Origin: Escherichia coli
GTDB taxonomy: Bacteria; Pseudomonadota; Gammaproteobacteria; Enterobacterales; Enterobacteriaceae
DNA length: 64,000 bases
NCBI RefSeq assembly: GCF_048403405.1
Contig: NZ_CP183129.1
Direction: 5' to 3' (one strand)
Both the position numbers and the translations under genes were made by a program. Positions 1 through 64,000 of the stretch are shown piece by piece (position 1 is the stretch's first letter; every line of letters starts with the position of its first letter). The notes beneath the pieces were generated by a model. That model did not search any database, was not told the origin of the DNA, and saw only the letters and a program-made list of their open reading frames with translations.

Positions 1-620
1 CGAATCGGACCGGTTACATCGCGCATTAAGCGCCAGCCAAAAATAAGCGCAATACCGATACAAAACAGCATCATCACGCTGGAAATAAAGATCTCTTTAT
101 ATTGCTGCAAGCGAACCGATTTAAGATCCAGCTCCAGCGCAATATATCCCAGCATATTTTGACTATTTTTGGCATCGCTACTGGGCGATTCGTCGGGGGA
201 GTAACTCTCAGAAATAATCGGCGTGCGGAGGATCATAATATCGCCGTCACGAGTGACAGTGAGCTGGCGAGGAAACGGCACGTTGCTGCCGAGCTGCATT
301 GATGAAGGATCAAGATGAAAATTGGAGGTGACAAAGAGTCGGTTATTTTCATCATAAACCGAAATCGCGCGAACAATATCGGAATGGCGACGATGCAGTA
401 CGCTTATTAACTGACCGATAGATTCGCGATTTTGCAGGCTCATGCCATATTCAGTAGAAACTGCAAGCGGCTCAATAATGCTGGCTCCGGCATCTTCCAG
501 TTGACGCTGCAAGTCGTTATAGCGATGCACAACGAAAAAGATACTCAGCAATAAACCAATAAGGACGGTCGGTGCCAGGATCAGAATCATCATGCGTGCG
601 CGCAGGCTGTAGTTGGTCAT
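1..620 (-). CDS. barA: Sensor histidine kinase BarA, N-terminal part; gene continues beyond the window start
   Basis: Reverse-strand frame from ATG (complement at about 618-620) reads [38 protein letters not shown]... and stays open to position 1; absent from ORF track because truncated by the window edge. Confidence 0.85.
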
Positions 621-676
621 GGAGTTCCGTTATGGGACAATTAAGGTCACACTGTTAAATTGAGAAAGTCTCGCCA

Positions 677-1978
677 ATGGCGCAATTCTACTCTGCAAAA
701 CGACGCACGACGACGCGTCAGATCATAACTGTTTCAGTCAACGACCTCGACTCTTTTGGTCAGGGCGTGGCACGACATAACGGCAAAGCGTTATTTATTC
801 CTGGATTACTGCCACAGGAAAACGCGGAAGTTACTGTTACTGAAGATAAAAAACAGTACGCCCGCGCTAAAGTCGTGCGCCGGTTAAGCGATAGCCCGGA
901 ACGCGAAACGCCACGCTGCCCTCATTTTGGCGTATGCGGTGGCTGTCAGCAACAACACGCCAGCGTGGATTTACAGCAGCGAAGCAAAAGTGCGGCACTC
1001 GCCCGATTAATGAAACACGAAGTCTCTGAAGTGATCGCCGATGTTCCCTGGGGCTATCGCCGTCGCGCGCGTTTAAGTTTGAACTACTTACCGAAAACAC
1101 AGCAACTTCAGATGGGGTTTCGCAAAGCGGGCTCCAGTGACATTGTCGACGTTAAACAATGCCCCATTTTAGTGCCCCAACTTGAAGCATTGCTGCCCAA
1201 AGTCAGGGCATGCCTGGACAGCTTACAAGCTATGCGCCATCTTGGTCATGTTGAACTGGTACAGGCAACCAGCGGCACGCTGATGATTTTGCGCCATACC
1301 GCACCGCTAAGTTCGGCTGATCGCGAAAAACTGGAACGCTTTTCGCATTCTGAAGGCCTGGATCTGTATCTCGCCCCCGATAGTGAGATACTCGAAACCG
1401 TCGCTGGTGAGATGCCCTGGTATGACTCAAACAGGTTGCGCTTAACTTTTAGCCCGCGCGATTTTATTCAGGTCAATGCGGGTGTGAACCAAAAAATGGT
1501 AGCGCGTGCGTTGGAATGGCTGGATGTGCAACCTGAAGATCGCGTACTGGATTTGTTCTGCGGTATGGGCAACTTTACACTGCCATTAGCGACACAAGCT
1601 GCCAGTGTGGTGGGTGTAGAAGGTGTTCCGGCGCTGGTGGAAAAAGGCCAGCAGAATGCGCGTCTTAATGGCTTACACAATGTGACGTTTTATCACGAAA
1701 ATCTTGAAGAAGATGTCACAAAGCAGCCGTGGGCGAAAAACGGCTTCGATAAAGTGTTGCTGGACCCGGCGCGAGCAGGTGCCGCAGGTGTTATGCAGCA
1801 AATTATAAAACTGGAACCTATTCGTATAGTTTATGTATCCTGTAACCCTGCAACGCTGGCTCGGGATAGCGAAGCGTTATTAAAAGCAGGATATACCATT
1901 GCGCGACTGGCGATGCTGGATATGTTCCCACACACGGGACATCTGGAATCGATGGTACTTTTCTCGCGCGTTAAATAG
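677..1978 (+). CDS. rlmD: 23S rRNA m5U1939 methyltransferase RlmD (RumA)
   Basis: 433-aa ORF; Cys cluster [11 protein letters not shown] and SAM-methyltransferase core ([14 protein letters not shown]); divergent from barA. Confidence 0.93.
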
Positions 1979-2025
1979 TTGCGATTTGCCGATTTCGGCA
2001 GGTCTGGTCCCTAAAGGAGAGGACG

Positions 2026-4260
2026 ATGGTTGCGGTAAGAAGTGCACATATCAATAAGGCTGGTGAATTTGATCCGGAAAAATGGATCGCAAGTCTGGGT
2101 ATTACCAGCCAGAAGTCGTGTGAGTGCTTAGCCGAAACCTGGGCGTATTGTCTGCAACAGACGCAGGGGCATCCGGATGCCAGTCTGTTATTGTGGCGTG
2201 GTGTTGAGATGGTGGAGATCCTCTCGACATTAAGTATGGACATTGACACGCTGCGGGCGGCGCTGCTGTTCCCTCTGGCGGATGCCAACGTAGTCAGCGA
2301 AGATGTGCTGCGTGAGTGCGTCGGTAAGTCGGTCGTTAACCTTATTCACGGCGTGCGTGATATGGCGGCGATCCGCCAGCTGAAAGCGACGCATACCGAT
2401 TCTGTTTCCTCCGAACAGGTCGATAACGTTCGCCGGATGTTATTGGCGATGGTCGATGATTTTCGCTGCGTGGTCATCAAACTGGCAGAGCGTATTGCTC
2501 ATCTGCGCGAAGTAAAAGACGCGCCGGAAGATGAACGCGTACTGGCGGCAAAAGAGTGCACCAATATCTACGCGCCGTTGGCGAACCGTCTTGGGATTGG
2601 ACAACTGAAATGGGAGCTGGAAGATTACTGCTTCCGTTATCTCCACCCGACCGAATACAAACGCATCGCAAAACTGCTGCATGAACGCCGTCTCGACCGC
2701 GAACACTATATCGAAGAGTTTGTCGGCCATCTGCGCGCTGAGATGAAAGCTGAAGGCGTTAAAGCTGAAGTGTATGGTCGACCGAAACACATCTACAGCA
2801 TCTGGCGCAAAATGCAGAAAAAGAACCTCGCCTTCGATGAGCTGTTTGATGTGCGTGCGGTACGTATTGTCGCCGAGCGTTTACAGGATTGCTATGCCGC
2901 ACTGGGGATAGTGCACACTCACTATCGCCACCTGCCGGATGAGTTTGACGATTACGTCGCTAACCCGAAACCAAACGGTTATCAGTCTATTCATACCGTG
3001 GTTCTGGGGCCGGGTGGCAAAACCGTTGAGATCCAAATCCGCACTAAACAGATGCATGAAGATGCAGAGTTGGGTGTTGCTGCGCACTGGAAATATAAAG
3101 AGGGCGCGGCAGCTGGCGGCGCACGTTCGGGACATGAAGACCGGATTGCCTGGCTGCGTAAACTGATTGCGTGGCAGGAAGAGATGGCTGATTCCGGCGA
3201 AATGCTCGACGAAGTACGTAGCCAGGTCTTTGACGACCGGGTGTACGTCTTTACGCCGAAAGGTGATGTCGTTGATTTGCCTGCGGGATCAACACCGCTG
3301 GACTTCGCTTACCACATCCACAGTGATGTCGGACACCGCTGCATCGGGGCAAAAATTGGCGGGCGCATTGTGCCGTTCACCTACCAGCTGCAGATGGGCG
3401 ACCAGATTGAAATTATCACCCAGAAACAGCCGAACCCCAGCCGTGACTGGTTAAACCCAAACCTCGGTTACGTCACAACCAGCCGTGGGCGTTCGAAAAT
3501 TCACGCCTGGTTCCGTAAACAGGACCGTGACAAAAACATTCTGGCTGGGCGGCAAATCCTTGACGACGAGCTGGAACATCTGGGGATCAGCCTGAAAGAA
3601 GCAGAAAAACATCTGCTGCCGCGTTACAACTTCAATGATGTCGACGAGTTGCTGGCGGCAATTGGTGGCGGGGATATCCGTCTCAATCAGATGGTGAACT
3701 TCCTGCAATCGCAATTTAATAAGCCGAGTGCCGAAGAGCAGGATGCCGCCGCGCTGAAGCAACTTCAGCAAAAAAGCTATACGCCGCAAAACCGCAGTAA
3801 AGATAACGGTCGTGTGGTGGTAGAAGGTGTCGGTAACCTGATGCACCACATCGCGCGCTGCTGCCAGCCGATTCCTGGAGATGAGATTGTCGGCTTCATT
3901 ACCCAGGGGCGCGGTATTTCAGTGCATCGTGCAGACTGTGAGCAACTGGCGGAACTGCGCTCCCATGCGCCAGAACGCATTGTTGACGCGGTATGGGGCG
4001 AGAGCTACTCCGCCGGATATTCGCTGGTGGTCCGGGTGATGGCCAATGATCGCAGTGGATTATTGCGTGATATCACGACCATTCTTGCCAACGAGAAGGT
4101 GAACGTGCTTGGCGTTGCCAGCCGTAGCGACACTAAACAGCAACTGGCGACTATCGACATGACCATTGAGATTTACAATCTGCAAGTGCTGGGCCGCGTG
4201 CTGGGTAAACTCAATCAGGTGCCGGATGTTATCGACGCGCGTCGGTTGCACGGGAGTTAG
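2026..4260 (+). CDS. relA: GTP pyrophosphokinase / (p)ppGpp synthetase I RelA
   Basis: 744-aa ORF with RelA/SpoT-type synthetase region and C-terminal regulatory domains; sits between rlmD and mazE. Confidence 0.96.
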   Translation: MVAVRSAHINKAGEFDPEKWIASLGITSQKSCECLAETWAYCLQQTQGHPDASLLLWRGVEMVEILSTLSMDIDTLRAALLFPLADANVVSEDVLRECVGKSVVNLIHGVRDMAAIRQLKATHTDSVSSEQVDNVRRMLLAMVDDFRCVVIKLAERIAHLREVKDAPEDERVLAAKECTNIYAPLANRLGIGQLKWELEDYCFRYLHPTEYKRIAKLLHERRLDREHYIEEFVGHLRAEMKAEGVKAEVYGRPKHIYSIWRKMQKKNLAFDELFDVRAVRIVAERLQDCYAALGIVHTHYRHLPDEFDDYVANPKPNGYQSIHTVVLGPGGKTVEIQIRTKQMHEDAELGVAAHWKYKEGAAAGGARSGHEDRIAWLRKLIAWQEEMADSGEMLDEVRSQVFDDRVYVFTPKGDVVDLPAGSTPLDFAYHIHSDVGHRCIGAKIGGRIVPFTYQLQMGDQIEIITQKQPNPSRDWLNPNLGYVTTSRGRSKIHAWFRKQDRDKNILAGRQILDDELEHLGISLKEAEKHLLPRYNFNDVDELLAAIGGGDIRLNQMVNFLQSQFNKPSAEEQDAAALKQLQQKSYTPQNRSKDNGRVVVEGVGNLMHHIARCCQPIPGDEIVGFITQGRGISVHRADCEQLAELRSHAPERIVDAVWGESYSAGYSLVVRVMANDRSGLLRDITTILANEKVNVLGVASRSDTKQQLATIDMTIEIYNLQVLGRVLGKLNQVPDVIDARRLHGS

Positions 4261-4276
4261 GCCGAAATTAGCTCGT

Positions 4277-4320
4277 ATCTACAATGTAGATTGATATATA
4301 CTGTATCTACATATGATAGC
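4277..4320. promoter_or_regulatory. mazEF promoter/operator region with palindromes
   Basis: Inverted repeat ATCTACA-A-TGTAGAT (about 4277-4291) followed by a related TACTGTATCTACATAT element, 20-60 nt upstream of the mazE ATG at 4338. Confidence 0.5.
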
Positions 4321-4337
4321 GGTTTGAGGAAAGGGTT

Positions 4338-4586
4338 ATGATCCACAGTAGCGTAAAGCGTTGGGGAAATTCACCGGCGGTGCGGATCCCGGCTACGTTA
4401 ATGCAGGCGCTCAATCTGAATATTGATGATGAAGTGAAGATTGACCTGGTGGATGGCAAATTAATTATTGAGCCAGTGCGTAAAGAGCCCGTATTTACGC
4501 TTGCTGAACTGGTCAACGACATCACGCCGGAAAACCTCCACGAGAATATCGACTGGGGAGAGCCGAAAGATAAGGAAGTCTGGTAA
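4338..4586 (+). CDS. mazE: Antitoxin MazE (type II TA)
   Basis: 82-aa [21 protein letters not shown]...; stop overlaps the mazF start. Confidence 0.95.
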
Positions 4587-5996: not shown

Positions 5997-7649
<1,653 letters not shown>

Positions 7650-48520: not shown

Positions 48521-48582
48521 ATCGGCGGAACCAGGCTTTTGCTTGAATGTTCCGTCAAGGGATCACGGGTAGGAGCCACCTT

Positions 48583-49575
48583 ATGAGTCAGAATACGCTG
48601 AAAGTTCATGATTTAAATGAAGATGCGGAATTTGATGAGAACGGAGTTGAGGTTTTTGACGAAAAGGCCTTAGTAGAAGAGGAACCCAGTGATAACGATT
48701 TGGCCGAAGAGGAACTGTTATCGCAGGGAGCCACACAGCGTGTGCTGGACGCGACTCAGCTTTACCTTGGTGAGATTGGTTATTCACCACTGTTAACGGC
48801 CGAAGAAGAAGTTTATTTTGCGCGTCGCGCACTGCGTGGAGATGTTGCCTCCCGCCGCCGGATGATCGAGAGTAACTTGCGTCTGGTGGTAAAAATTGCC
48901 CGCCGTTATGGCAATCGTGGTCTGGCGTTGCTGGACCTGATCGAAGAGGGCAACCTGGGGCTGATCCGCGCGGTAGAGAAGTTTGACCCGGAACGTGGTT
49001 TCCGCTTCTCAACATACGCAACCTGGTGGATTCGCCAGACGATCGAACGGGCGATTATGAACCAAACCCGTACTATTCGTTTGCCTATTCACATCGTAAA
49101 GGAGCTGAACGTTTACCTGCGAACCGCACGCGAGTTGTCCCATAAACTGGACCACGAACCAAGTGCGGAAGAGATCGCAGAGCAACTGGATAAGCCAGTT
49201 GATGACGTCAGCCGTATGCTTCGTCTTAACGAGCGCATTACCTCGGTAGACACCCCGCTGGGTGGTGATTCCGAAAAAGCGTTGCTGGACATCCTGGCCG
49301 ATGAAAAAGAGAACGGTCCGGAAGATACCACGCAAGATGACGATATGAAGCAGAGCATCGTCAAATGGCTGTTCGAGCTGAACGCCAAACAGCGTGAAGT
49401 ACTGGCACGTCGATTCGGTTTGCTGGGGTACGAAGCGGCAACATTGGAAGATGTAGGTCGTGAAATTGGCCTCACCCGTGAACGTGTTCGCCAGATTCAG
49501 GTTGAAGGCCTGCGCCGTTTGCGCGAAATCCTGCAAACGCAGGGGCTGAATATCGAAGCGCTGTTCCGCGAGTAA
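48583..49575 (+). CDS. rpoS: RNA polymerase sigma factor RpoS (sigma-38)
   Basis: Start at ATG 48583 ([17 protein letters not shown]...) with AGGAG RBS; ORF-track start 48547 is an upstream extension. Confidence 0.97.
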
Positions 49576-50248: not shown

Positions 50249-50842
50249 ATGAAACTGATCGTCGGGATGACAGGGGCTACCGGTGCGCCTCTTGGTGTGG
50301 CATTACTGCAAGCGCTGCGGGAGATGCCGAATGTCGAGACTCATCTGGTGATGTCGAAGTGGGCGAAAACCACTATTGAACTGGAAACGCCTTACAGCGC
50401 TCGCGATGTTGCCGCCCTCGCAGACTTCAGCCATAACCCGGCGGATCAGGCGGCGACTATCTCTTCCGGCTCCTTTCGTACCGACGGCATGATCGTTATT
50501 CCATGCAGTATGAAAACGCTCGCCGGTATCCGCGCTGGTTACGCCGATGGCCTGGTGGGGCGCGCGGCGGACGTCGTGCTCAAAGAAGGCCGCAAACTGG
50601 TGCTGGTGCCGCGTGAAATGCCGCTTAGCACAATCCATCTCGAAAATATGCTCGCACTTTCGCGCATGGGCGTGGCGATGGTGCCGCCGATGCCTGCCTT
50701 TTATAACCATCCCGAAACGGTAGATGACATTGTCCACCACGTGGTAGCCCGCGTGCTGGATCAATTTGGCCTCGAACATCCTCACGCCAGGCGCTGGCAA
50801 GGATTGCCGCAGGCCCGGAATTTTTCTCAGGAGAATGAATAA
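50249..50842 (+). CDS. ecdB: UbiX/Pad1-family flavin prenyltransferase (EcdB/VdcB/KpdB-like)
   Basis: 197-aa ORF MKLIVGMTGATGAPLGVALLQALR... typical UbiX N-terminus. Confidence 0.88.
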   Translation: MKLIVGMTGATGAPLGVALLQALREMPNVETHLVMSKWAKTTIELETPYSARDVAALADFSHNPADQAATISSGSFRTDGMIVIPCSMKTLAGIRAGYADGLVGRAADVVLKEGRKLVLVPREMPLSTIHLENMLALSRMGVAMVPPMPAFYNHPETVDDIVHHVVARVLDQFGLEHPHARRWQGLPQARNFSQENE

Positions 50843-52269
50843 TGGCATTTGATGATTTACGCAGCTTTTTACAGGCGCTTGATGACCACGGCCAGTTACT
50901 GAAAATCAGCGAAGAGGTGAACGCGGAACCGGATCTGGCAGCCGCAGCCAACGCCACCGGGCGTATCGGCGACGGCGCGCCCGCGCTTTGGTTTGATAAT
51001 ATTCGCGGCTTTATCGATGCCCGCGTGGCAATGAACACCATCGGTTCCTGGCAGAACCACGCGATTTCCCTCGGCCTGCCGCCAAACACCCCGGTTAAAA
51101 AACAGATTGATGAGTTTATCCGCCGCTGGGATAACTTCCCCATTACCCCGGAGCGCCGCGCCAATCCAGCCTGGGCGCAGAACACCGTCGATGGCGACGA
51201 GATCAACCTGTTCGATATTCTGCCGCTGTTTCGTTTAAACGACGGTGATGGCGGTTTCTATCTCGATAAAGCGTGCGTGGTTTCCCGCGATCCGCTCGAC
51301 CCGGATAACTTCGGCAAGCAGAACGTCGGCATCTACCGCATGGAAGTGAAGGGCAAACGTAAGCTCGGCCTGCAACCGGTGCCGATGCACGATATCGCTC
51401 TGCATCTGCATAAAGCGGAAGAACGCGGTGAAGATCTGCCGATTGCCATCACCCTGGGTAACGATCCGAACATCACCCTGATGGGCGCCACGCCGCTGAA
51501 ATACGATCAGTCTGAGTACGAAATGGCGGGCGCGCTGCGCGAAAGCCCGTACCCGATCGCCACCGCCCCGCTGACCGGTTTTGATGTGCCGTGGGGCTCG
51601 GAAGTGATCCTCGAAGGGGTTATCGAAAGTCGTAAACGTGAGATTGAAGGGCCGTTCGGTGAGTTTACCGGCCACTACTCCGGCGGGCGTAACATGACCG
51701 TGGTGCGTATCGATAAAGTCTCTTACCGTACCAAACCGATTTTCGAATCGCTCTATCTTGGTATGCCGTGGACCGAAATCGACTACCTGATGGGGCCTGC
51801 CACCTGCGTGCCGCTGTATCAGCAACTGAAAGCCGAGTTCCCGGAAGTGCAGGCGGTAAACGCCATGTACACCCACGGCCTGTTGGCGATTATCTCCACC
51901 AAAAAACGCTACGGCGGCTTTGCCCGCGCGGTGGGCCTGCGTGCAATGACCACGCCGCACGGTCTGGGCTACGTGAAGATGGTGATTATGGTCGATGAAG
52001 ACGTTGATCCGTTCAACCTGCCGCAGGTGATGTGGGCGCTCTCCTCGAAAGTGAACCCGGCAGGCGACCTGGTGCAGTTGCCAAATATGTCCGTGCTGGA
52101 ACTCGACCCTGGCTCAAGCCCGGCGGGGATCACCGACAAGCTGATTATCGACGCCACCACGCCTGTCGCCCCGGACAACCGTGGTCACTACAGCCAGCCG
52201 GTGGTGGATTTACCGGAAACCAAAGCCTGGGCTGAAAAACTGACCGCTATGCTGGCCGCACGTAAATAA
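50842..52269 (+). CDS. ecdC: UbiD-family (prFMN-dependent) decarboxylase, phenolic-acid decarboxylase C-subunit-like
   Basis: 475-aa UbiD-like ORF translationally coupled to the UbiX-like gene. Confidence 0.85.
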   Translation: MAFDDLRSFLQALDDHGQLLKISEEVNAEPDLAAAANATGRIGDGAPALWFDNIRGFIDARVAMNTIGSWQNHAISLGLPPNTPVKKQIDEFIRRWDNFPITPERRANPAWAQNTVDGDEINLFDILPLFRLNDGDGGFYLDKACVVSRDPLDPDNFGKQNVGIYRMEVKGKRKLGLQPVPMHDIALHLHKAEERGEDLPIAITLGNDPNITLMGATPLKYDQSEYEMAGALRESPYPIATAPLTGFDVPWGSEVILEGVIESRKREIEGPFGEFTGHYSGGRNMTVVRIDKVSYRTKPIFESLYLGMPWTEIDYLMGPATCVPLYQQLKAEFPEVQAVNAMYTHGLLAIISTKKRYGGFARAVGLRAMTTPHGLGYVKMVIMVDEDVDPFNLPQVMWALSSKVNPAGDLVQLPNMSVLELDPGSSPAGITDKLIIDATTPVAPDNRGHYSQPVVDLPETKAWAEKLTAMLAARK

Positions 52270-52554: not shown

Positions 52555-53919
52555 TCAAATTACCGCCCATACGCACCAGGTAATTAAGAATCCGGTAAAA
52601 CCGAGAATGGTCGTTAACACTGTCCAGGTTTTCAGACCGTCTGCTACCGACAACCCCAGATATTTGGTCACAATCCAGAACCCTGAGTCATTAATATGTG
52701 ACGCGCCAAGCCCACCAAAGCAGGCTGCCAGCGTCACCAATACGCACTGAATCGGATTCAATCCCATCACCGCTTCTGAGAGTAACCCGCCGGTTGTCAG
52801 GATTGCTACGGTTGCTGACCCCTGCGATGCACGCAGCGCCAGTGAAATAATAAATGCGGCTGGTAACAGAGGCAGGTCAATCATTTGTAGCATGTTGGCA
52901 AGGGCTTTGCCGACGCCCGATTCCACCAGCACTTTGCCAAATACCCCTCCAGCACCAGTAACCAAAATCACTACCGCCGCGGTGGGAAGGGCTGAGCCCA
53001 TAATGTCGCTGGTGTGTTGTAAGCTCCAGCCGCGACGTAAAGCCAATAACCAGAATGCCAGCACCAGCGCAATCATTAGAGCTACCATTGGTGAGCCGAT
53101 CAGCTGTAGCGTACCAAGCAGGGGATGCGAAGGCGGCATCAGTGTTGCGGAAACCGTACCCGCCATGATAATCGCGATAGGAATAACAATTAGCGAGGTG
53201 ACCAGCGCGACGCCCGGTGGATTTATTTTATCGCTTAATTTTGTCGCGCCTTCCTCACTGGCCGGAGCCAGTTGCATCTGTTCCAGTACTTCCACCGACA
53301 TCGCATATTGGCACTTATTGATTATTTTCGCTGCAAAGTAGCCAACAATCCCTACGGGAATAGAAATCGCAATACCGATGATGGTTAGCCAGCCGATGTC
53401 TGCGTGGAGTAACCCCGCTGCGGCGACAGGGCCTGGATGCGGCGGTACCGCCACATGAACAGTTAGCATGATTCCAGCGACAGGCAGGCCAAATTTGAGT
53501 GGCGATATTTTGGCAACCTTGGCAAAACCGTAAATGATTGGCGCAAGAATAATAAAGCCGACATCAAAGAAGACGGGAATACCGAGGAAGAACGCTGCCA
53601 GAGTCAGCGCAGCGATAGTTCGTTTGTCACCTAACTTGCGACTGAAATAATTAGCCAGTGACTCTGCACCACCAGAGTGTTCGATCATACGCCCCAGCAT
53701 AGCGCCCAGACCAATAATAATAGTGACGGAACCAAGCACACCGCCCATCCCGGCGATCATCACTTTACCCACTTCGCCCGCCGGTATACCCGCCGCAAGT
53801 GCGACTAACAGGCTGACGAGGAGCAGAGCAACGAATGGTTGTACCTTTGCCTTGATGACCAGCAGCAACAGCATGATTACGCCAGTTAACGCAATGCATA
53901 ACAATGTAATTGTGGACAT
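52555..53919 (-). CDS. ygbN: GntP-family permease YgbN
   Basis: 454-aa polytopic membrane ORF. Confidence 0.88.
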   Translation of the reverse strand: MSTITLLCIALTGVIMLLLLVIKAKVQPFVALLLVSLLVALAAGIPAGEVGKVMIAGMGGVLGSVTIIIGLGAMLGRMIEHSGGAESLANYFSRKLGDKRTIAALTLAAFFLGIPVFFDVGFIILAPIIYGFAKVAKISPLKFGLPVAGIMLTVHVAVPPHPGPVAAAGLLHADIGWLTIIGIAISIPVGIVGYFAAKIINKCQYAMSVEVLEQMQLAPASEEGATKLSDKINPPGVALVTSLIVIPIAIIMAGTVSATLMPPSHPLLGTLQLIGSPMVALMIALVLAFWLLALRRGWSLQHTSDIMGSALPTAAVVILVTGAGGVFGKVLVESGVGKALANMLQMIDLPLLPAAFIISLALRASQGSATVAILTTGGLLSEAVMGLNPIQCVLVTLAACFGGLGASHINDSGFWIVTKYLGLSVADGLKTWTVLTTILGFTGFLITWCVWAVI

Positions 53920-59366: not shown

Positions 59367-61928
59367 TTACACCAGACTCTTCAAGCGATAAATCCACTCC
59401 AGCGCCTGACGCGGAGTCAGTGAATCCGGGTCGAGGTTTTCCAGTGCCTCGACCGCAGGCGAAGTTTCTTCTGGTACGGACAGCAAAGACATCTGCGTGC
59501 CATCTACCTGCGTCGCGGCGGCATTCGGCGAAATGCTCTCCAGCTCACGCAGTTTCTGCCGCGCGCGTTTGATCACCTCTTTTGGCACGCCCGCAAGGGC
59601 TGCAACCGCCAGGCCGTAGCTTTTGCTCGCCGCGCCATCCTGCACGCTGTGCATAAAGGCAATGGTGTCGCCGTGCTCCAGTGCATCGAGATGCACGTTG
59701 GCGACGCCTTCCATTTTCTCCGGTAACTGGGTCAGCTCGAAATAGTGGGTGGCAAACAACGTCAACGCTTTAATCTTATTCGCCAGATTTTCCGCGCACG
59801 CCCACGCCAGCGACAGACCATCGTAAGTGGACGTCCCGCGCCCAATCTCATCCATCAGTACCAGACTGTACTCGGTGGCGTTATGTAAAATATTGGCGGT
59901 TTCGGTCATTTCCACCATAAAGGTTGAACGCCCGGATGCCAGATCATCCGCTGCCCCTACGCGGGTAAAGATGCGATCGATAGGTCCAATCTCGACTTTT
60001 TGTGCCGGTACATAGCTGCCGATGTAGGCCATCAGCGCAATCAGTGCGGTCTGGCGCATATAGGTACTTTTACCGCCCATATTCGGACCGGTAATGATCA
60101 ACATGCGACGCTGCGGCGACAGGTTCAGCGGGTTGGCGATAAACGGCTCATTCAGCACCTGTTCAACCACCGGATGGCGGCCTTCGGTGATGCGAATACC
60201 CGGTTTATCAATAAAGGTCGGGCAGGTGTAGTTCAGGGTATAGGCCCGTTCCGCCAGGTTCACCAGCACGTCGAGTTCCGCCAGTGCGCTCGCGCTCTGT
60301 TGCAACGCTTCCAGATGCGGCAACAGCAGGTCGAACAGCTCTTCATAAAGCTGTTTTTCCAGTGCCAGTGCTTTGCCTTTTGAAGTGAGAACTTTGTCTT
60401 CGTACTCTTTTAGCTCTGGAATAATGTAGCGCTCGGCGTTTTTCAGCGTCTGGCGACGCATGTAATTGATGGGTGCCAGATGGCTTTGTCCACGGCTGAT
60501 CTGAATGTAATAACCATGAACCGCGTTAAAGCCGACTTTCAGGGTGTCCAGGCCAGTACGTTCACGCTCGCGGACTTCCAGACGCTCCAGATAATCGGTC
60601 GCGCCGTCAGCCAGCGCGCGCCACTCATCCAGCTCTTCGTTATAGCCCGGTGCGATAACACCACCGTCGCGTACCAGCACCGGCGGTGTGTCGATGATTG
60701 CTCGCTCCAGCAGATCGCGCAGCTCGGCAAACTCGCCCATTTTTTCACGCAGCGCCTGTACCGGAGCGCTATCGACATTTTCTAACTGCGCGCGCAGCTC
60801 CGGCAGTTGCTGGAAAGCGTGACGCATACGGGCCAGATCGCGTGGGCGAGCAGTTCGTAAAGCCAGACGCGCCAGAATACGTTCCAGGTCGCCGACCTGA
60901 CGCAGTACCGGCTGCAGCTCGGCGGTGAAATCCTGCAATGCGCCAATAGTTTGCTGGCGCTCAAGCAAGACGCGGGTATCGCGCACTGGCATATGCAGCC
61001 AGCGTTTCAGCATACGGCTGCCCATCGGCGTGACGGTGCAGTCGAGCACAGAAGCCAGCGTATTTTCCGCACCGCCCGCCAGGTTCTGGGTAATTTCCAG
61101 GTTACGACGCGTCGCGGCATCCATAATGATGCTGTCCTGCTCACGTTCCATGGTGATAGAACGAATATGCGGCAGGGTCGTGCGTTGAGTATCTTTCGCA
61201 TACTGCAACAGACAACCGGCAGCACAAAGTCCGCGCGGCGCGTTCTCGACGCCAAAACCGACCAGATCGCGGGTGCCAAATTGCAGATTCAACTGCTGGC
61301 GCGCGGTGTCGATTTCAAACTCCCACAGCGGGCGACGGCGCAGTCCGCGACGACCTTCAATCAGCGACATCTCGGCGAAATTTTCTGCATACAACAGCTC
61401 TGCCGGATTAGTGCGTTGCAGCTCTGCCGCCATCGTTTCGCGGTCAGCCGGTTCGCTCAGGCGAAAACGACCGGAACTGATATCCAGCGTCGCGTAGCCG
61501 AAACCTTTGCTGTCCTGCCAGATAGCCGCCAGCAGGTTATCCTGACGCTCCTGCAACAGCGCTTCATCGCTGATGGTGCCCGGCGTAACGATACGCACAA
61601 CTTTGCGCTCAACCGGACCTTTGCTGGTCGCCGGATCGCCAATTTGTTCGCAGATGGCAACGGACTCGCCCTGATTCACCAGTTTGGCGAGGTAGTTTTC
61701 CACCGCATGGTAGGGGATCCCCGCCATCGGGATCGGCTCTCCCGCCGAAGCACCGCGTTTGGTCAGTGAAATATCCAGCAGTTGCGACGCGCGTTTTGCG
61801 TCGTCATAAAACAGTTCATAAAAATCACCCATCCGGTAAAACAGCAGGATCTCGGGATGCTGGGCTTTCAGCTTGAGATATTGCTGCATCATGGGCGTAT
61901 GGGCATCGAAATTTTCTATTGCACTCAT
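59367..61928 (-). CDS. mutS: DNA mismatch repair protein MutS
   Basis: 853-aa [29 protein letters not shown]... with Walker [10 protein letters not shown]. Confidence 0.98.
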
Positions 61929-62168
61929 GGGGTTATGTCCGGTTCCCTGATATTAAATGGGGTGTGATGGTTTTTATTTTCGTTGTAATCACATAAGGCG
62001 CACATGATACCGGAGTTAATCATTTCAGGGGAAGAAGCGAACGGCGAGTTCTTGATGCTGGTTCCGGGAAAGATGCTGTTTTGCAGCTTTTGCGTGATGC
62101 TTATGAAGCAAGTACGCAAAATTGTATCGGTTGGCTAACCCTTCTTCTTTAGAGTCATAGTGCCCTTT

Positions 62169-62197
62169 AAGATTAAGTTGTAATATAAATGCATCTT
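62169..62197. promoter_or_regulatory. NsrR-like inverted repeat upstream of ygbA
   Basis: AAGATTAAGTT-N7-AAATGCATCTT resembles the NsrR operator; about 18 nt upstream of the ygbA ATG. Confidence 0.5.
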
Positions 62198-62214
62198 AAT
62201 GAGATGGAGGCAGC

Positions 62215-62559
62215 ATGTCCGGCAAGCGTATCTCTCGTGAAAAACTGACGATTAAAAAAATGATCGATCTTTATCAAGCGAAATGCCCGCAGGCGTCAGC
62301 GGAGCCGGAGCATTATGAGGCGTTGTTTACTTACGCGCAAAAGCGGCTGGATAAATGTGTGTTCGGCGAAGAGAAACCAGCCTGTAAGCAGTGTCCGGTG
62401 CACTGTTACCAGCCTGCAAAGCGTGAAGAGATGAAACAGATTATGCGTTGGGCTGGGCCGCGAATGCTGTGGCGTCATCCGATCTTAACCGTGCGTCATC
62501 TCATCGATGACAAGCGTCCGGTGCCGGAGTTGCCAGAAAAATATCGTCCAAAGAAATAA
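62215..62559 (+). CDS. ygbA: YgbA (nitrosative-stress-induced small protein)
   Basis: 114-aa Cys-containing ORF divergent from mutS. Confidence 0.85.
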   Translation: MSGKRISREKLTIKKMIDLYQAKCPQASAEPEHYEALFTYAQKRLDKCVFGEEKPACKQCPVHCYQPAKREEMKQIMRWAGPRMLWRHPILTVRHLIDDKRPVPELPEKYRPKK

Positions 62560-62597
62560 ATCTGCCGGAGAGCCATACTCTCCGGCAAATAAGGCGC

Positions 62598-63026
62598 TTA
62601 CGCTTTGGTGGCAATCAGGATGGCTGATGCTTTGATCAATGCAATAACGCGCGAGCCAGTGGTGAGTTTCATTTCATCCTGACTTTCATTTGTTACCACT
62701 GCCACAATTTCAAAACCCGCATCCGTTTTGATATGGACAGTGGCGTTCACTGCGCCTTCGGTGATTGTCGACACGCTGCCAGCAAACTGGTTGCGAGCAG
62801 AGAATTTCAGTCCACAGTCTTCCGTTGCCAGCGTTACCCACGGGGCTTTAATCAGGGCAATCGCTTCTTTCCCTTTCGCCAGACCCAGCGCTTGCTGGCT
62901 GCTGTGAGTCACAATTGCCACCAGCTTTGCACCACCTGCCAGCGTCAGTTCTACTTCATCATTCACAGCGCCCATTGCTACTGCGCTAACTGTTCCGGTT
63001 AATTGATTTCTTGCTGAAACTGCCAT
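62598..63026 (-). CDS. Tandem-TOBE (Mop-like) molybdate/tungstate-binding protein
   Basis: Two roughly 68-aa repeats with the TOBE pattern (...RNQLTGTV...ELTLAGGAKLVAIVT... and ...RNQFAGSV...HIKTDAGFEIVAVVT...); start set at internal ATG with GGAGG RBS. Confidence 0.75.
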   Translation of the reverse strand: MAVSARNQLTGTVSAVAMGAVNDEVELTLAGGAKLVAIVTHSSQQALGLAKGKEAIALIKAPWVTLATEDCGLKFSARNQFAGSVSTITEGAVNATVHIKTDAGFEIVAVVTNESQDEMKLTTGSRVIALIKASAILIATKA

Positions 63027-63070
63027 ACTGCCTCCTTTCATTGAATGTTGATCGAGTATAACCACATCTG

Positions 63071-64000
63071 TTAAATCAATGCCGATTTATCAATTCCCAG
63101 TCGCTTCATCCGTGACAGCAGAGTCGTGCGTTTCAGCCCCAGACGTTGCGCAGCGCCTTTAGGCCCGGCAACCACGCCGTTAGTTTCTTTCAGCACGCGA
63201 ACAATCAACTGATATTCATCTTCGCCCTCCTGGGCGACAACCGTTGCGGCAGGCGGCGTTTCAGGCTCCGGTAAAGCAATATCTGGCAATGACAGCTGCA
63301 GCACGTTGCCGCGTGTTAGCAATACCGCGCGCTCGATGACGTTTTCCAGCTCACGCACGTTGCCCGGCCATTCCATGTTGCTCAGGATGCGCAGCGTCTC
63401 GGCAGGAATGCTGTCGATATTGCGCCCCAGACGACGGGCAATTTTGAAGGTAAAGGCTTTCGCCAGCAGCGGAATATCTTCCGGACGCTCGCGTAGTGGC
63501 GGCAGGTGGATCGGGAATACATTCAGGCGGTAATAGAGATCGCTACGGAACTCACGGTCGGCGACCATTTTTTTCAGATCGCGGTTAGTCGCGGCAATTA
63601 AACGCACGTCCGTCTGAATGATTTTGTTGCTGCCGAGACGTTCAAACTCCTGTTCCTGTAATACACGCAGCAACTTCGGCTGTAACTCCAGTGGCATATC
63701 GCCCACTTCGTCGAGGAACAGGGAGCTTTTATCCGCCAGTTCAAAACGACCAATGCGCTGGGCGCTGGCACCGGTAAAAGCCCCACGCTCATGACCAAAC
63801 AGATCGCTCTCCAGCAATCCGGCAGGCATCGCCGCGCAGTTCATTTTTACCATGCGGCGATTATTACGCCCACTGAGATTATGGATCGCGCGGGCAATCA
63901 GCTCTTTACCCGTGCCAGTTTCACCGAGGATCAGCACGGTACTGTCACTTTGCGCCACCATTTCAACTTGTTTAAGCACGCTGTACATGGCTTCGCTGCG
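63071..64000 (-). CDS. fhlA: Formate hydrogenlyase transcriptional activator FhlA, C-terminal part; gene continues beyond the window end
   Basis: Sigma-54 activator AAA+ domain (GETGTGKELIARAIH, GAFTGA) and C-terminal HTH; frame open to position 64000. Confidence 0.85.
   Translation of the reverse strand, partial: RSEAMYSVLKQVEMVAQSDSTVLILGETGTGKELIARAIHNLSGRNNRRMVKMNCAAMPAGLLESDLFGHERGAFTGASAQRIGRFELADKSSLFLDEVGDMPLELQPKLLRVLQEQEFERLGSNKIIQTDVRLIAATNRDLKKMVADREFRSDLYYRLNVFPIHLPPLRERPEDIPLLAKAFTFKIARRLGRNIDSIPAETLRILSNMEWPGNVRELENVIERAVLLTRGNVLQLSLPDIALPEPETPPAATVVAQEGEDEYQLIVRVLKETNGVVAGPKGAAQRLGLKRTTLLSRMKRLGIDKSALI

Follow-up and report, generated by a model that had tools for sequence, protein, structure and literature searches.

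In the window analyzed here, a stretch of 64,000 nucleotides of Escherichia coli DNA, a small gene (here mop) directly downstream of fhlA encodes a protein made up of two molybdate-binding-type Mop/TOBE domains. We read Mop as a free-standing ModG-type molbindin with two Mop domains, probably a molybdenum buffer or store, whose gene was ancestrally the last cistron of the hyp-fhlA transcription unit and was lost in the K-12 lineage; we put the probability of this reading at roughly 0.7. The gene is not new: it is already annotated, its size polymorphism was published in 2014 (PMC4209514), and its product is an ordinary member of a structurally well-known family. What our analysis adds is the probable ancestral place of mop at the end of the hyp-fhlA unit, and the finding that K-12 is a natural deletion mutant for it. 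The relevant features of the window are the following.

62215..62559, plus strand: ygbA, nitrous oxide-stimulated promoter family protein (NF007713, E = 7e-81), convergent with mop
62550..62590, minus strand: intrinsic-terminator-like hairpin between mop and ygbA, with a 14-bp stem and a U-rich tail, 8 nt past the mop stop
62598..63026, minus strand: mop coding sequence, 142-aa di-Mop (tandem TOBE) molbindin, ModG-like (translation, Pfam/NCBIfam, RefSeq)
63027..63070, minus strand: fhlA-mop spacer, 44 nt, holding the ribosome-binding site and a conserved -10-like box
63031..63037, minus strand: Shine-Dalgarno sequence AAGGAGG, 4 nt before the mop ATG, read from the sequence
63055..63060, minus strand: TATACT hexamer, candidate -10 element, 34 nt upstream of the mop ATG, proposed from conservation
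63071..64000, minus strand: 3′ part of fhlA, formate hydrogenlyase transcriptional activator, upstream of mop and running off the window end

The open reading frame at mop in the program-made list (62598..63065, minus strand) starts with GTG and would give 155 aa, a version also present in some GenBank entries; we dropped it, as the extension is unconserved and the ribosome-binding site precedes the internal ATG. The start was placed at the ATG at 63026 because AAGGAGG lies 4 nt upstream, the RefSeq annotation of identical strains gives a 142-aa product, and the orthologues all open with M-x-V-S-A-R-N, the sequence 5′ of this start being divergent. A ribosome-binding site-like GGAGG or GGAGA is kept at all orthologous mop loci. 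The fhlA stop codon occupies 63073..63071 on the same strand, with the mop ATG 44 nt beyond it, which agrees with the original prediction of a gene with a strong ribosome-binding site at exactly this spacing.

Conservation marks mop as a real, functional gene and not a chance ORF. It is under strong purifying selection, with dN/dS of 0.03 to 0.09 against orthologues for which dS is unsaturated (0.027 against E. albertii, dS 0.36; 0.09 against Escherichia sp., dS 0.23; 0.04 to 0.05 against Citrobacter, dS about 1), and the protein keeps a length of 142 aa from genus to genus. Two thirds of E. coli genomes manage without the gene at no obvious cost, as might be expected of a spurious ORF or of a decaying remnant without function; such a remnant, however, should show neither this degree of constraint nor a constant length, invariant ligand residues (below), a strong ribosome-binding site, and an intact, essentially full-length gene in 1,889 of the 1,892 E. 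coli genomes that carry it. The conservation data refute that reading.

Profile searches of the 142-aa protein recovered the predicted tandem repeat, with two matches each to PF03459 (TOBE; E = 8.8e-35) and TIGR00638 (Mop; E = 4e-42), and Pfam and NCBIfam found no domain besides these two, which cover approximately residues 1 to 68 and 73 to 140. Residues 1 to 140 align with residues 4 to 143 of Azotobacter vinelandii ModG (1H9J; E = 5e-33, 48 to 49% identity). An AlphaFold2 monomer model built from 64 homologues (pLDDT 97.3, pTM 0.88) had ModG as its best Foldseek match in the PDB (1H9J/1H9K/1H9M; TM 0.94 to 0.95, rmsd 1.4 Å) and fitted it better than the di-Mop domain of E. coli ModE (TM 0.88), which ranks after ModG in the sequence comparison. 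Across an alignment of 64 stand-alone di-Mop proteins, S4, A5, R6, N7, T40, S43, K60, and A61 of domain 1 and S76, R78, N79, T112, K132, and A133 of domain 2 are invariant or at least 90% conserved. Four groups of residues in domain 1 (S4/R6/N7, A20-V21-N22, T40/S43, K60/A61) and their counterparts in domain 2 (S76/R78/N79, A92-V93-N94, T112/S115, K132/A133) align with ModG, and both domains bear SARN, GAVN, T-x-x-S, and KA(P/S) motifs, as in ModG. Domain 1 also aligns, residue for residue, with the molybdate ligands of ModE reported by Gourley et al. 2001 (S126, R128, T163, S166, K183, A184). The structure paper on Tub names Ala20-Val21-Asn22, Arg6, and Ala61 as tungstate ligands, in the same numbering as Mop domain 1. 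On every criterion of sequence and of predicted fold, Mop is thus a ModG-type molbindin. The 2,233 representative clusters retrieved by a HMMER search with Mop (E up to 1e-3) mix stand-alone proteins of about 142 aa with ModE-like proteins of about 265 aa.

By homology, Mop would be a small protein of the cytoplasm that lacks DNA-binding and ATPase domains, assembles into a trimer equivalent to a pseudo-hexamer of six Mop domains and binds the oxyanions molybdate and/or tungstate. We infer the trimer because interface and ligand residues are conserved; by analogy with characterized relatives it would hold eight sites, two axial ones formed by the G-A-V-N loops and six at the interfaces, lined by S4/R6/T40/S43/K60/A61 and S76/R78/T112/S115/K132/A133. 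Taking up as many as eight molybdate or tungstate ions, such a trimer could act as a cytoplasmic buffer or store, a role that is well supported by homology to ModG. The preference of Mop for Mo or W is not readable from its sequence.

Comparison with known systems places Mop closest to ModG, the founding di-Mop molbindin, which has the same architecture (about 142 aa, two Mop/TOBE domains only), 48 to 49% identity over the full length, a TM of 0.95 to the predicted fold, and ligand motifs in both domains, as in Mop. The two differ in setting: Azotobacter modG lies with mod genes and, according to the literature, serves nitrogenase and Mo homeostasis, whereas mop follows fhlA in non-diazotrophic enterobacteria. 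The C-terminal di-Mop domain of ModE (1B9M, 1O7L, 1H9R/S) has the same tandem fold (TM 0.88, 34 to 39% identity), but ModE is a protein of about 260 aa with an N-terminal winged-helix DNA-binding domain that Mop lacks; against the ModE model NF007957, Mop matches only positions 124 to 261 of 263, with 88 bits versus a cutoff of 369. Further, the second Mop domain of ModE has lost its ligand motifs, whereas Mop keeps them in both domains. Of the ModC/WtpC ABC ATPases with a C-terminal TOBE domain, Mop matches only the last 60 to 70 model positions, far below the cutoffs, and has no ATPase domain. Single-domain molbindins, namely Mop/MopII (Clostridium pasteurianum 1GUG, Sporomusa 1FR3, Haemophilus) and the "tungbindin" Tub (Eubacterium limosum 9BEB), each match one half of Mop (E = 2e-9 to 6e-9, 40% identity to Tub, rmsd 1.0 to 1.5 Å). 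These are hexamers of chains of about 70 aa; Mop is two such domains fused, so that three chains would equal that assembly.

We compared the locus among complete E. coli genomes and found mop in 1,892 of 5,426 (35%), always single-copy and chromosomal, whereas a K-12-type fhlA-ygbA junction, in one contiguous piece at ≥98% identity, is found in 3,507. K-12 MG1655 has no such gene, as originally suspected: fhlA and ygbA are 36 nt apart, and alignment shows about 466 bp missing. Two findings could have counted against the original prediction, an identical ORF at this site in K-12 and the lack of a TOBE-domain match; K-12 is without the ORF, and the TOBE profiles matched. Because every mop-less E. 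coli genome sampled shows the same gap of about 466 bp, the locus has two alleles and not many. The missing segment extends from just past the fhlA stop to just past the mop stop, and the terminator hairpin stays; a deletion in the K-12 lineage and in about 65% of sequenced E. coli would thus have taken out the spacer and the mop cistron and left the operon terminator. The ygbA product is 114 aa in the window and 117 aa in K-12, since the 3′ end of ygbA is different in the K-12 deletion allele. Among named strains, presence was verified directly for CFT073 and absence for K-12, BL21, and MC1061, while absence from EDL933 is taken from a published table. The CFT073 (phylogroup B2) gene c3292 (WP_000301062.1) is mop itself, at the same position between fhlA and ygbA, with one nucleotide difference in 429 and an identical protein. 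It is annotated as a "putative molybdenum-pterin-binding protein," and elsewhere as "TOBE domain-containing protein," "transporter," or "molybdopterin-binding protein." In the literature searched we found no functional study of mop or c3292 (binding, expression, or phenotype) and the 2014 typing paper alone.

The gene order around mop extends far beyond E. coli. More than 10 genera of enterobacteria, with at least 42 loci between them, keep the order hypE-fhlA-mop, among them E. fergusonii, E. albertii, Escherichia sp., several Citrobacter, Pseudocitrobacter, Raoultella, Klebsiella, Kluyvera, Pluralibacter, Enterobacter, Kosakonia, Yokenella, and Lelliottia, with a spacer between fhlA and mop of 44 nt in the median (range, 31 to 101; 42 related loci). 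Divergence of Mop is correlated with that of FhlA (Spearman 0.81, n = 37), as expected under vertical co-inheritance. Because the outgroups E. albertii, E. fergusonii, and Escherichia sp. carry mop and the gene-less genomes share one junction, comparison of these sequences indicates that mop is ancestral and that the K-12-type allele is derived by a single deletion. The suggestion that mop may be accessory therefore holds for its variable presence in E. coli, but not in the sense of a gain, since the order is conserved in more than 10 genera and there is one junction. We also considered an acquired island and rejected it: the boundaries are free of mobile-element genes and repeats, mop is present in the outgroups, and the gene-less genomes share one junction.

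There are exceptions to this gene order. Two loci have lost the hyc-hyp-fhlA cluster, those of Raoultella sp. BIGb0138 and Enterobacter sp. BIGb0383; both keep mop, beside asc-like genes, and a 3′ remnant of fhlA is left at the Raoultella locus only. Phytobacter has mop directly after hypE, while Serratia, Cedecea, and Edwardsiella have it in unrelated neighborhoods, and the Salmonella copies lie in IS-flanked islands that contain IS21/IS66 fragments as well as genes for fimbrial ushers. The link of mop to formate hydrogenlyase (FHL) may thus be only historical, as the gene is retained without hyc-hyp-fhlA, follows hypE in Phytobacter, and occurs elsewhere in unrelated contexts and islands. 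No mod genes were found within 6 kb of mop, where the neighbors are hypABCDE-fhlA upstream and ygbA or sitABCD downstream. Seen against our main reading, these missing mod genes are a counterpoint, as is the fact that about 65% of E. coli do well without mop.

We then examined whether mop fits the end of the hyp-fhlA transcription unit. The portion of fhlA in the window encodes the C-terminal 305 aa, which correspond to positions 388 to 692 of 692 of NF011958 (E = 3e-208); on the other side of mop, ygbA is followed by mutS. The hairpin 3′ of mop, which the terminator scan placed at 62590..62560 plus the tail TTATTTCTTT, is strongly folded (-23.4 kcal/mol, z -4.45). The spacer between fhlA and mop is unstructured (-4.3 kcal/mol, z +0.85), and the same scan found no terminator between the two genes. 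Because the spacer is without a terminator, FhlA-linked expression of mop is plausible. K-12 has a diverged homologous hairpin directly after fhlA (-19.7 kcal/mol, z -4.3), and the simplest reading of this arrangement is that the hyp-fhlA unit of K-12 corresponds to a hyp-fhlA-mop unit in carriers. The observations that bear on operon membership are the shared strand, the unstructured 44-nt spacer, a terminator only after mop, and adjacency in 42 loci. Transcription of fhlA is known to start in part at the hyp promoters. As the putative ancestral terminal cistron of this unit in Enterobacteriaceae, mop would probably be expressed when the formate regulon is induced, at a time when FDH-H, a Mo-bis-MGD selenoenzyme, needs molybdenum cofactor; transcription of hyc and fdhF reportedly needs molybdate (Rosentel 1995; Self 1999). 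Mop may possibly be made in stationary phase as well, and mop probably also has a promoter of its own, of sigma-S/sigma-70 type.

Signals for such a promoter are limited to the -10 region. A sigma-70 consensus scan of 62100-63400 found no promoter, a -35 element is not recognizable, and an Rfam scan of 61900-63400 (E up to 1) gave no match, for example to a Moco riboswitch. The TATACT hexamer nonetheless holds a constant -34 position in Escherichia, Citrobacter, and Pluralibacter-like taxa, the Salmonella island copies have retained it, and TATA[AC]N is found in 31 of 48 distinct mop upstream regions, against about 6 expected from shuffles, though these regions are phylogenetically non-independent. 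Part of this signal reflects shared ancestry and the stop codon of fhlA (GTATAA in Klebsiella and Raoultella). The extended -10 consensus for sigma-S is TCTATACTTAA, with TATACT as its core (PMC3367168), and Citrobacter and Kluyvera carry GCTATACT. The conserved -10-like hexamer, the one feature that argues for it, makes a mop-specific second promoter plausible. Between fhlA and mop, Lelliottia, E. soli, and C. amalonaticus have a hairpin with a TATA box (TATAAA) after it, which implies independent transcription of mop there. We also searched the spacer by eye for a ModE operator (consensus TATAT-N7-TAYAT) and set the candidate aside as unsupported: it resembles the left half-site only (GGTTATAC), and the right half is unconserved between genera.

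Three alternatives to this account concern how mop is expressed and what it does for the formate regulon. Mop could be a housekeeping or stationary-phase molbindin that is independent of FHL and expressed mainly from its own promoter (-10 TATACT, sigma-S-like), with adjacency to fhlA no more than inherited order. The fixed distance of the hexamer from the ATG in 31 of 48 upstream regions, including Salmonella copies away from fhlA, and its identity with the sigma-S core fit such a gene, as do retention of mop after loss of the FHL cluster (loci L022 and L038), the unrelated contexts outside Enterobacteriaceae, and the hairpin followed by a TATA box in Lelliottia, E. soli, and C. amalonaticus. 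We nevertheless consider it somewhat unlikely: there is no recognizable -35 and no match in the sigma-70 consensus scan, the hexamer signal comes partly from ancestry and from the fhlA stop, and with a spacer that in most species is 31 to 56 nt, unstructured, and terminator-free, read-through from fhlA would be hard to avoid. Conversely, Mop could be tied into regulation, either sequestering molybdate or contacting the di-Mop domain of ModE, and so tune modABC repression and hyc/fdhF/nar activation and couple Mo sensing to the formate regulon. Its di-Mop module is the same as the ModE sensor domain, mop is positioned within the putative fhlA transcription unit, and the literature describes Azotobacter ModG as regulating molybdate homeostasis, with an effect on the synthesis of the nitrogenase cofactor. 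Yet Mop lacks a DNA-binding domain, a hetero-oligomer with ModE is without evidence, no convincing ModE operator was seen by eye in the spacer, and in K-12, which is without the gene, the dependence of hyc and mod regulation on molybdate is complete, as the literature has established; a regulatory Mop is unlikely. We think it more doubtful still that Mop is a working component of the formate regulon in the full sense, induced with fhlA, capturing molybdate for FDH-H cofactor synthesis, and able, as free molybdate drops, to feed back on ModE-controlled mod and hyc.

A different kind of alternative concerns the ligand. Mop might be a sink for tungstate or another oxyanion that guards molybdoenzymes such as FDH-H from mis-metallation, and not a molybdate store. 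Mop/TOBE sites take tungstate and molybdate alike in the ModE, MopII, and Tub structures (PDB), and the Tub paper reports that gut species predicted to use W commonly have ModG-type architectures, but nothing in the Mop sequence separates W from Mo, the closest characterized relative, ModG, is a molybdate protein, and the neighborhood has no transporter or enzyme specific to W. We regard a dedicated tungstate sink as quite improbable and continue to favor a molybdenum buffer or store of the ModG type.

To our knowledge, the genetics of formate hydrogenlyase and of molybdate regulation has all been done in K-12. K-12 is without mop, while the gene still stands directly behind fhlA in the majority of other Enterobacteriaceae and in about one E. 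coli in three, the B2 uropathogen CFT073 among them. If the formate-regulon reading were true, the textbook molybdate control of formate hydrogenlyase would have been worked out in a deletion mutant, and carriers (B2 and other ExPEC lineages, Klebsiella, Citrobacter) would differ from it in Mo economy and tungstate sensitivity. Tungstate is used experimentally to suppress enterobacterial molybdoenzymes. More speculatively, a cytoplasmic Mo/W buffer could alter how carriers cope with molybdate limitation in the host or with tungstate.

The two-allele polymorphism at mop also offers a clean phylogenetic marker beside the well-known mosaic of the mutS-rpoS region. Ewers et al. (2014; PMC4209514) reported an fhlA-mutS amplicon of 1,673 bp in CFT073 versus 1,208 bp in MG1655 and EDL933. 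In their work a c3292-mutS PCR served only for typing, and the long amplicon was linked to B2 "pattern III" strains. Between rpoS and ygbN the window holds vdcB/vdcC (kpdB/kpdC), which makes it their kpd-containing "pattern IV" type, yet it carries c3292; the occurrence of the gene therefore goes beyond pattern III.

The terminator hairpin beside the 3′ end of ygbA differs between K-12, which carries the deletion allele, and carrier E. coli, the strains that keep the molbindin gene mop. The regions compared were as follows.

62545-62600, window
1955-2010, L001 (K-12)
about 4427-4500, L018 (Citrobacter amalonaticus)

The K-12 deletion allele retains a hairpin (TTGCCGGACAG..CTGTCCGGCATACT) that mismatches the carrier hairpin 3′ of mop (TTGCCGGAGAG..CTCTCCGGCAGAT) at about 13 of 50 nt and resembles the post-mop hairpin of C. 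amalonaticus. The adjoining ygbA 3′ end is unlike as well (K-12 = 117 aa, carrier = 114 aa). Because the sequence flanking this segment is 96 to 97% identical between K-12 and carrier, whereas the hairpin and ygbA end differ, the K-12-type segment may have originated in a diverged or recombined background.

The mutS-rpoS mosaic region of the window holds vdcB/vdcC.

48547-49575, rpoS
50249-52269, + strand, vdcB/vdcC (kpdB/kpdC), hydroxyarylic acid decarboxylase genes between rpoS and ygbN
52555-53919, − strand, ygbN

In the scheme of Ewers et al. (2014), this arrangement corresponds to pattern IV rather than to B2 pattern III. That study (PMC4209514) stated that the long fhlA-mutS amplicon, with c3292 (mop) inside, was exclusive to pattern III; the window strain combines pattern IV with c3292, and therefore this exclusivity fails for it.

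Homologues of mop with 87 to 89% identity are present in Salmonella enterica, where fhlA does not adjoin them and the surrounding islands contain IS21/IS66 fragments and chaperone-usher fimbrial genes.

6001-6429, mop homologue, L003
4025-4453, mop homologue, L004
7001-7429, mop homologues, L060 to L062

Upstream, these genes still have the GGCTATACT box and an apparent vestige of the 3′ end of fhlA, which suggests that an fhlA-mop fragment was transferred. In two other genomes, mop follows different genes.

about 600-4450, PTS and 6-phospho-beta-glucosidase genes, then mop, L022 (Raoultella sp. BIGb0138) and L038 (Enterobacter sp. BIGb0383)

The former genes were called ascF/ascB-like from ORF translations. 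At these loci, the entire hyc-hyp-fhlA cluster appears to have been deleted, with an fhlA 3′ remnant before mop in L022 only, and yet the molbindin gene is still intact in both. Longer fhlA-mop spacers (74 to 101 nt) occur in Lelliottia (L041, 3906-4000), E. soli (L040), and C. amalonaticus; there mop transcription looks uncoupled from fhlA, since in these spacers a TATAAA/TATACA box comes after a strong GC hairpin (−20 to −25 kcal/mol).

The fhlA-mutS interval looks like a hotspot where insertions recur, and in Salmonella it is the site of sitABCD and SPI-1. Genes for a sitABCD-like metal ABC transporter lie between mop and ygbA in Raoultella and Klebsiella (insertions in Raoultella/Klebsiella/Enterobacter loci L008, L009, L021, L024, L026, and L029) and beyond ygbA in Citrobacter (L013, L014, L016, L020, and L023). 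One small ORF lies between mutS and ygbA.

62004-62138, + strand, 44-aa ORF, RefSeq hypothetical protein WP_000611932.1

It is annotated in K-12 and in carrier strains alike.
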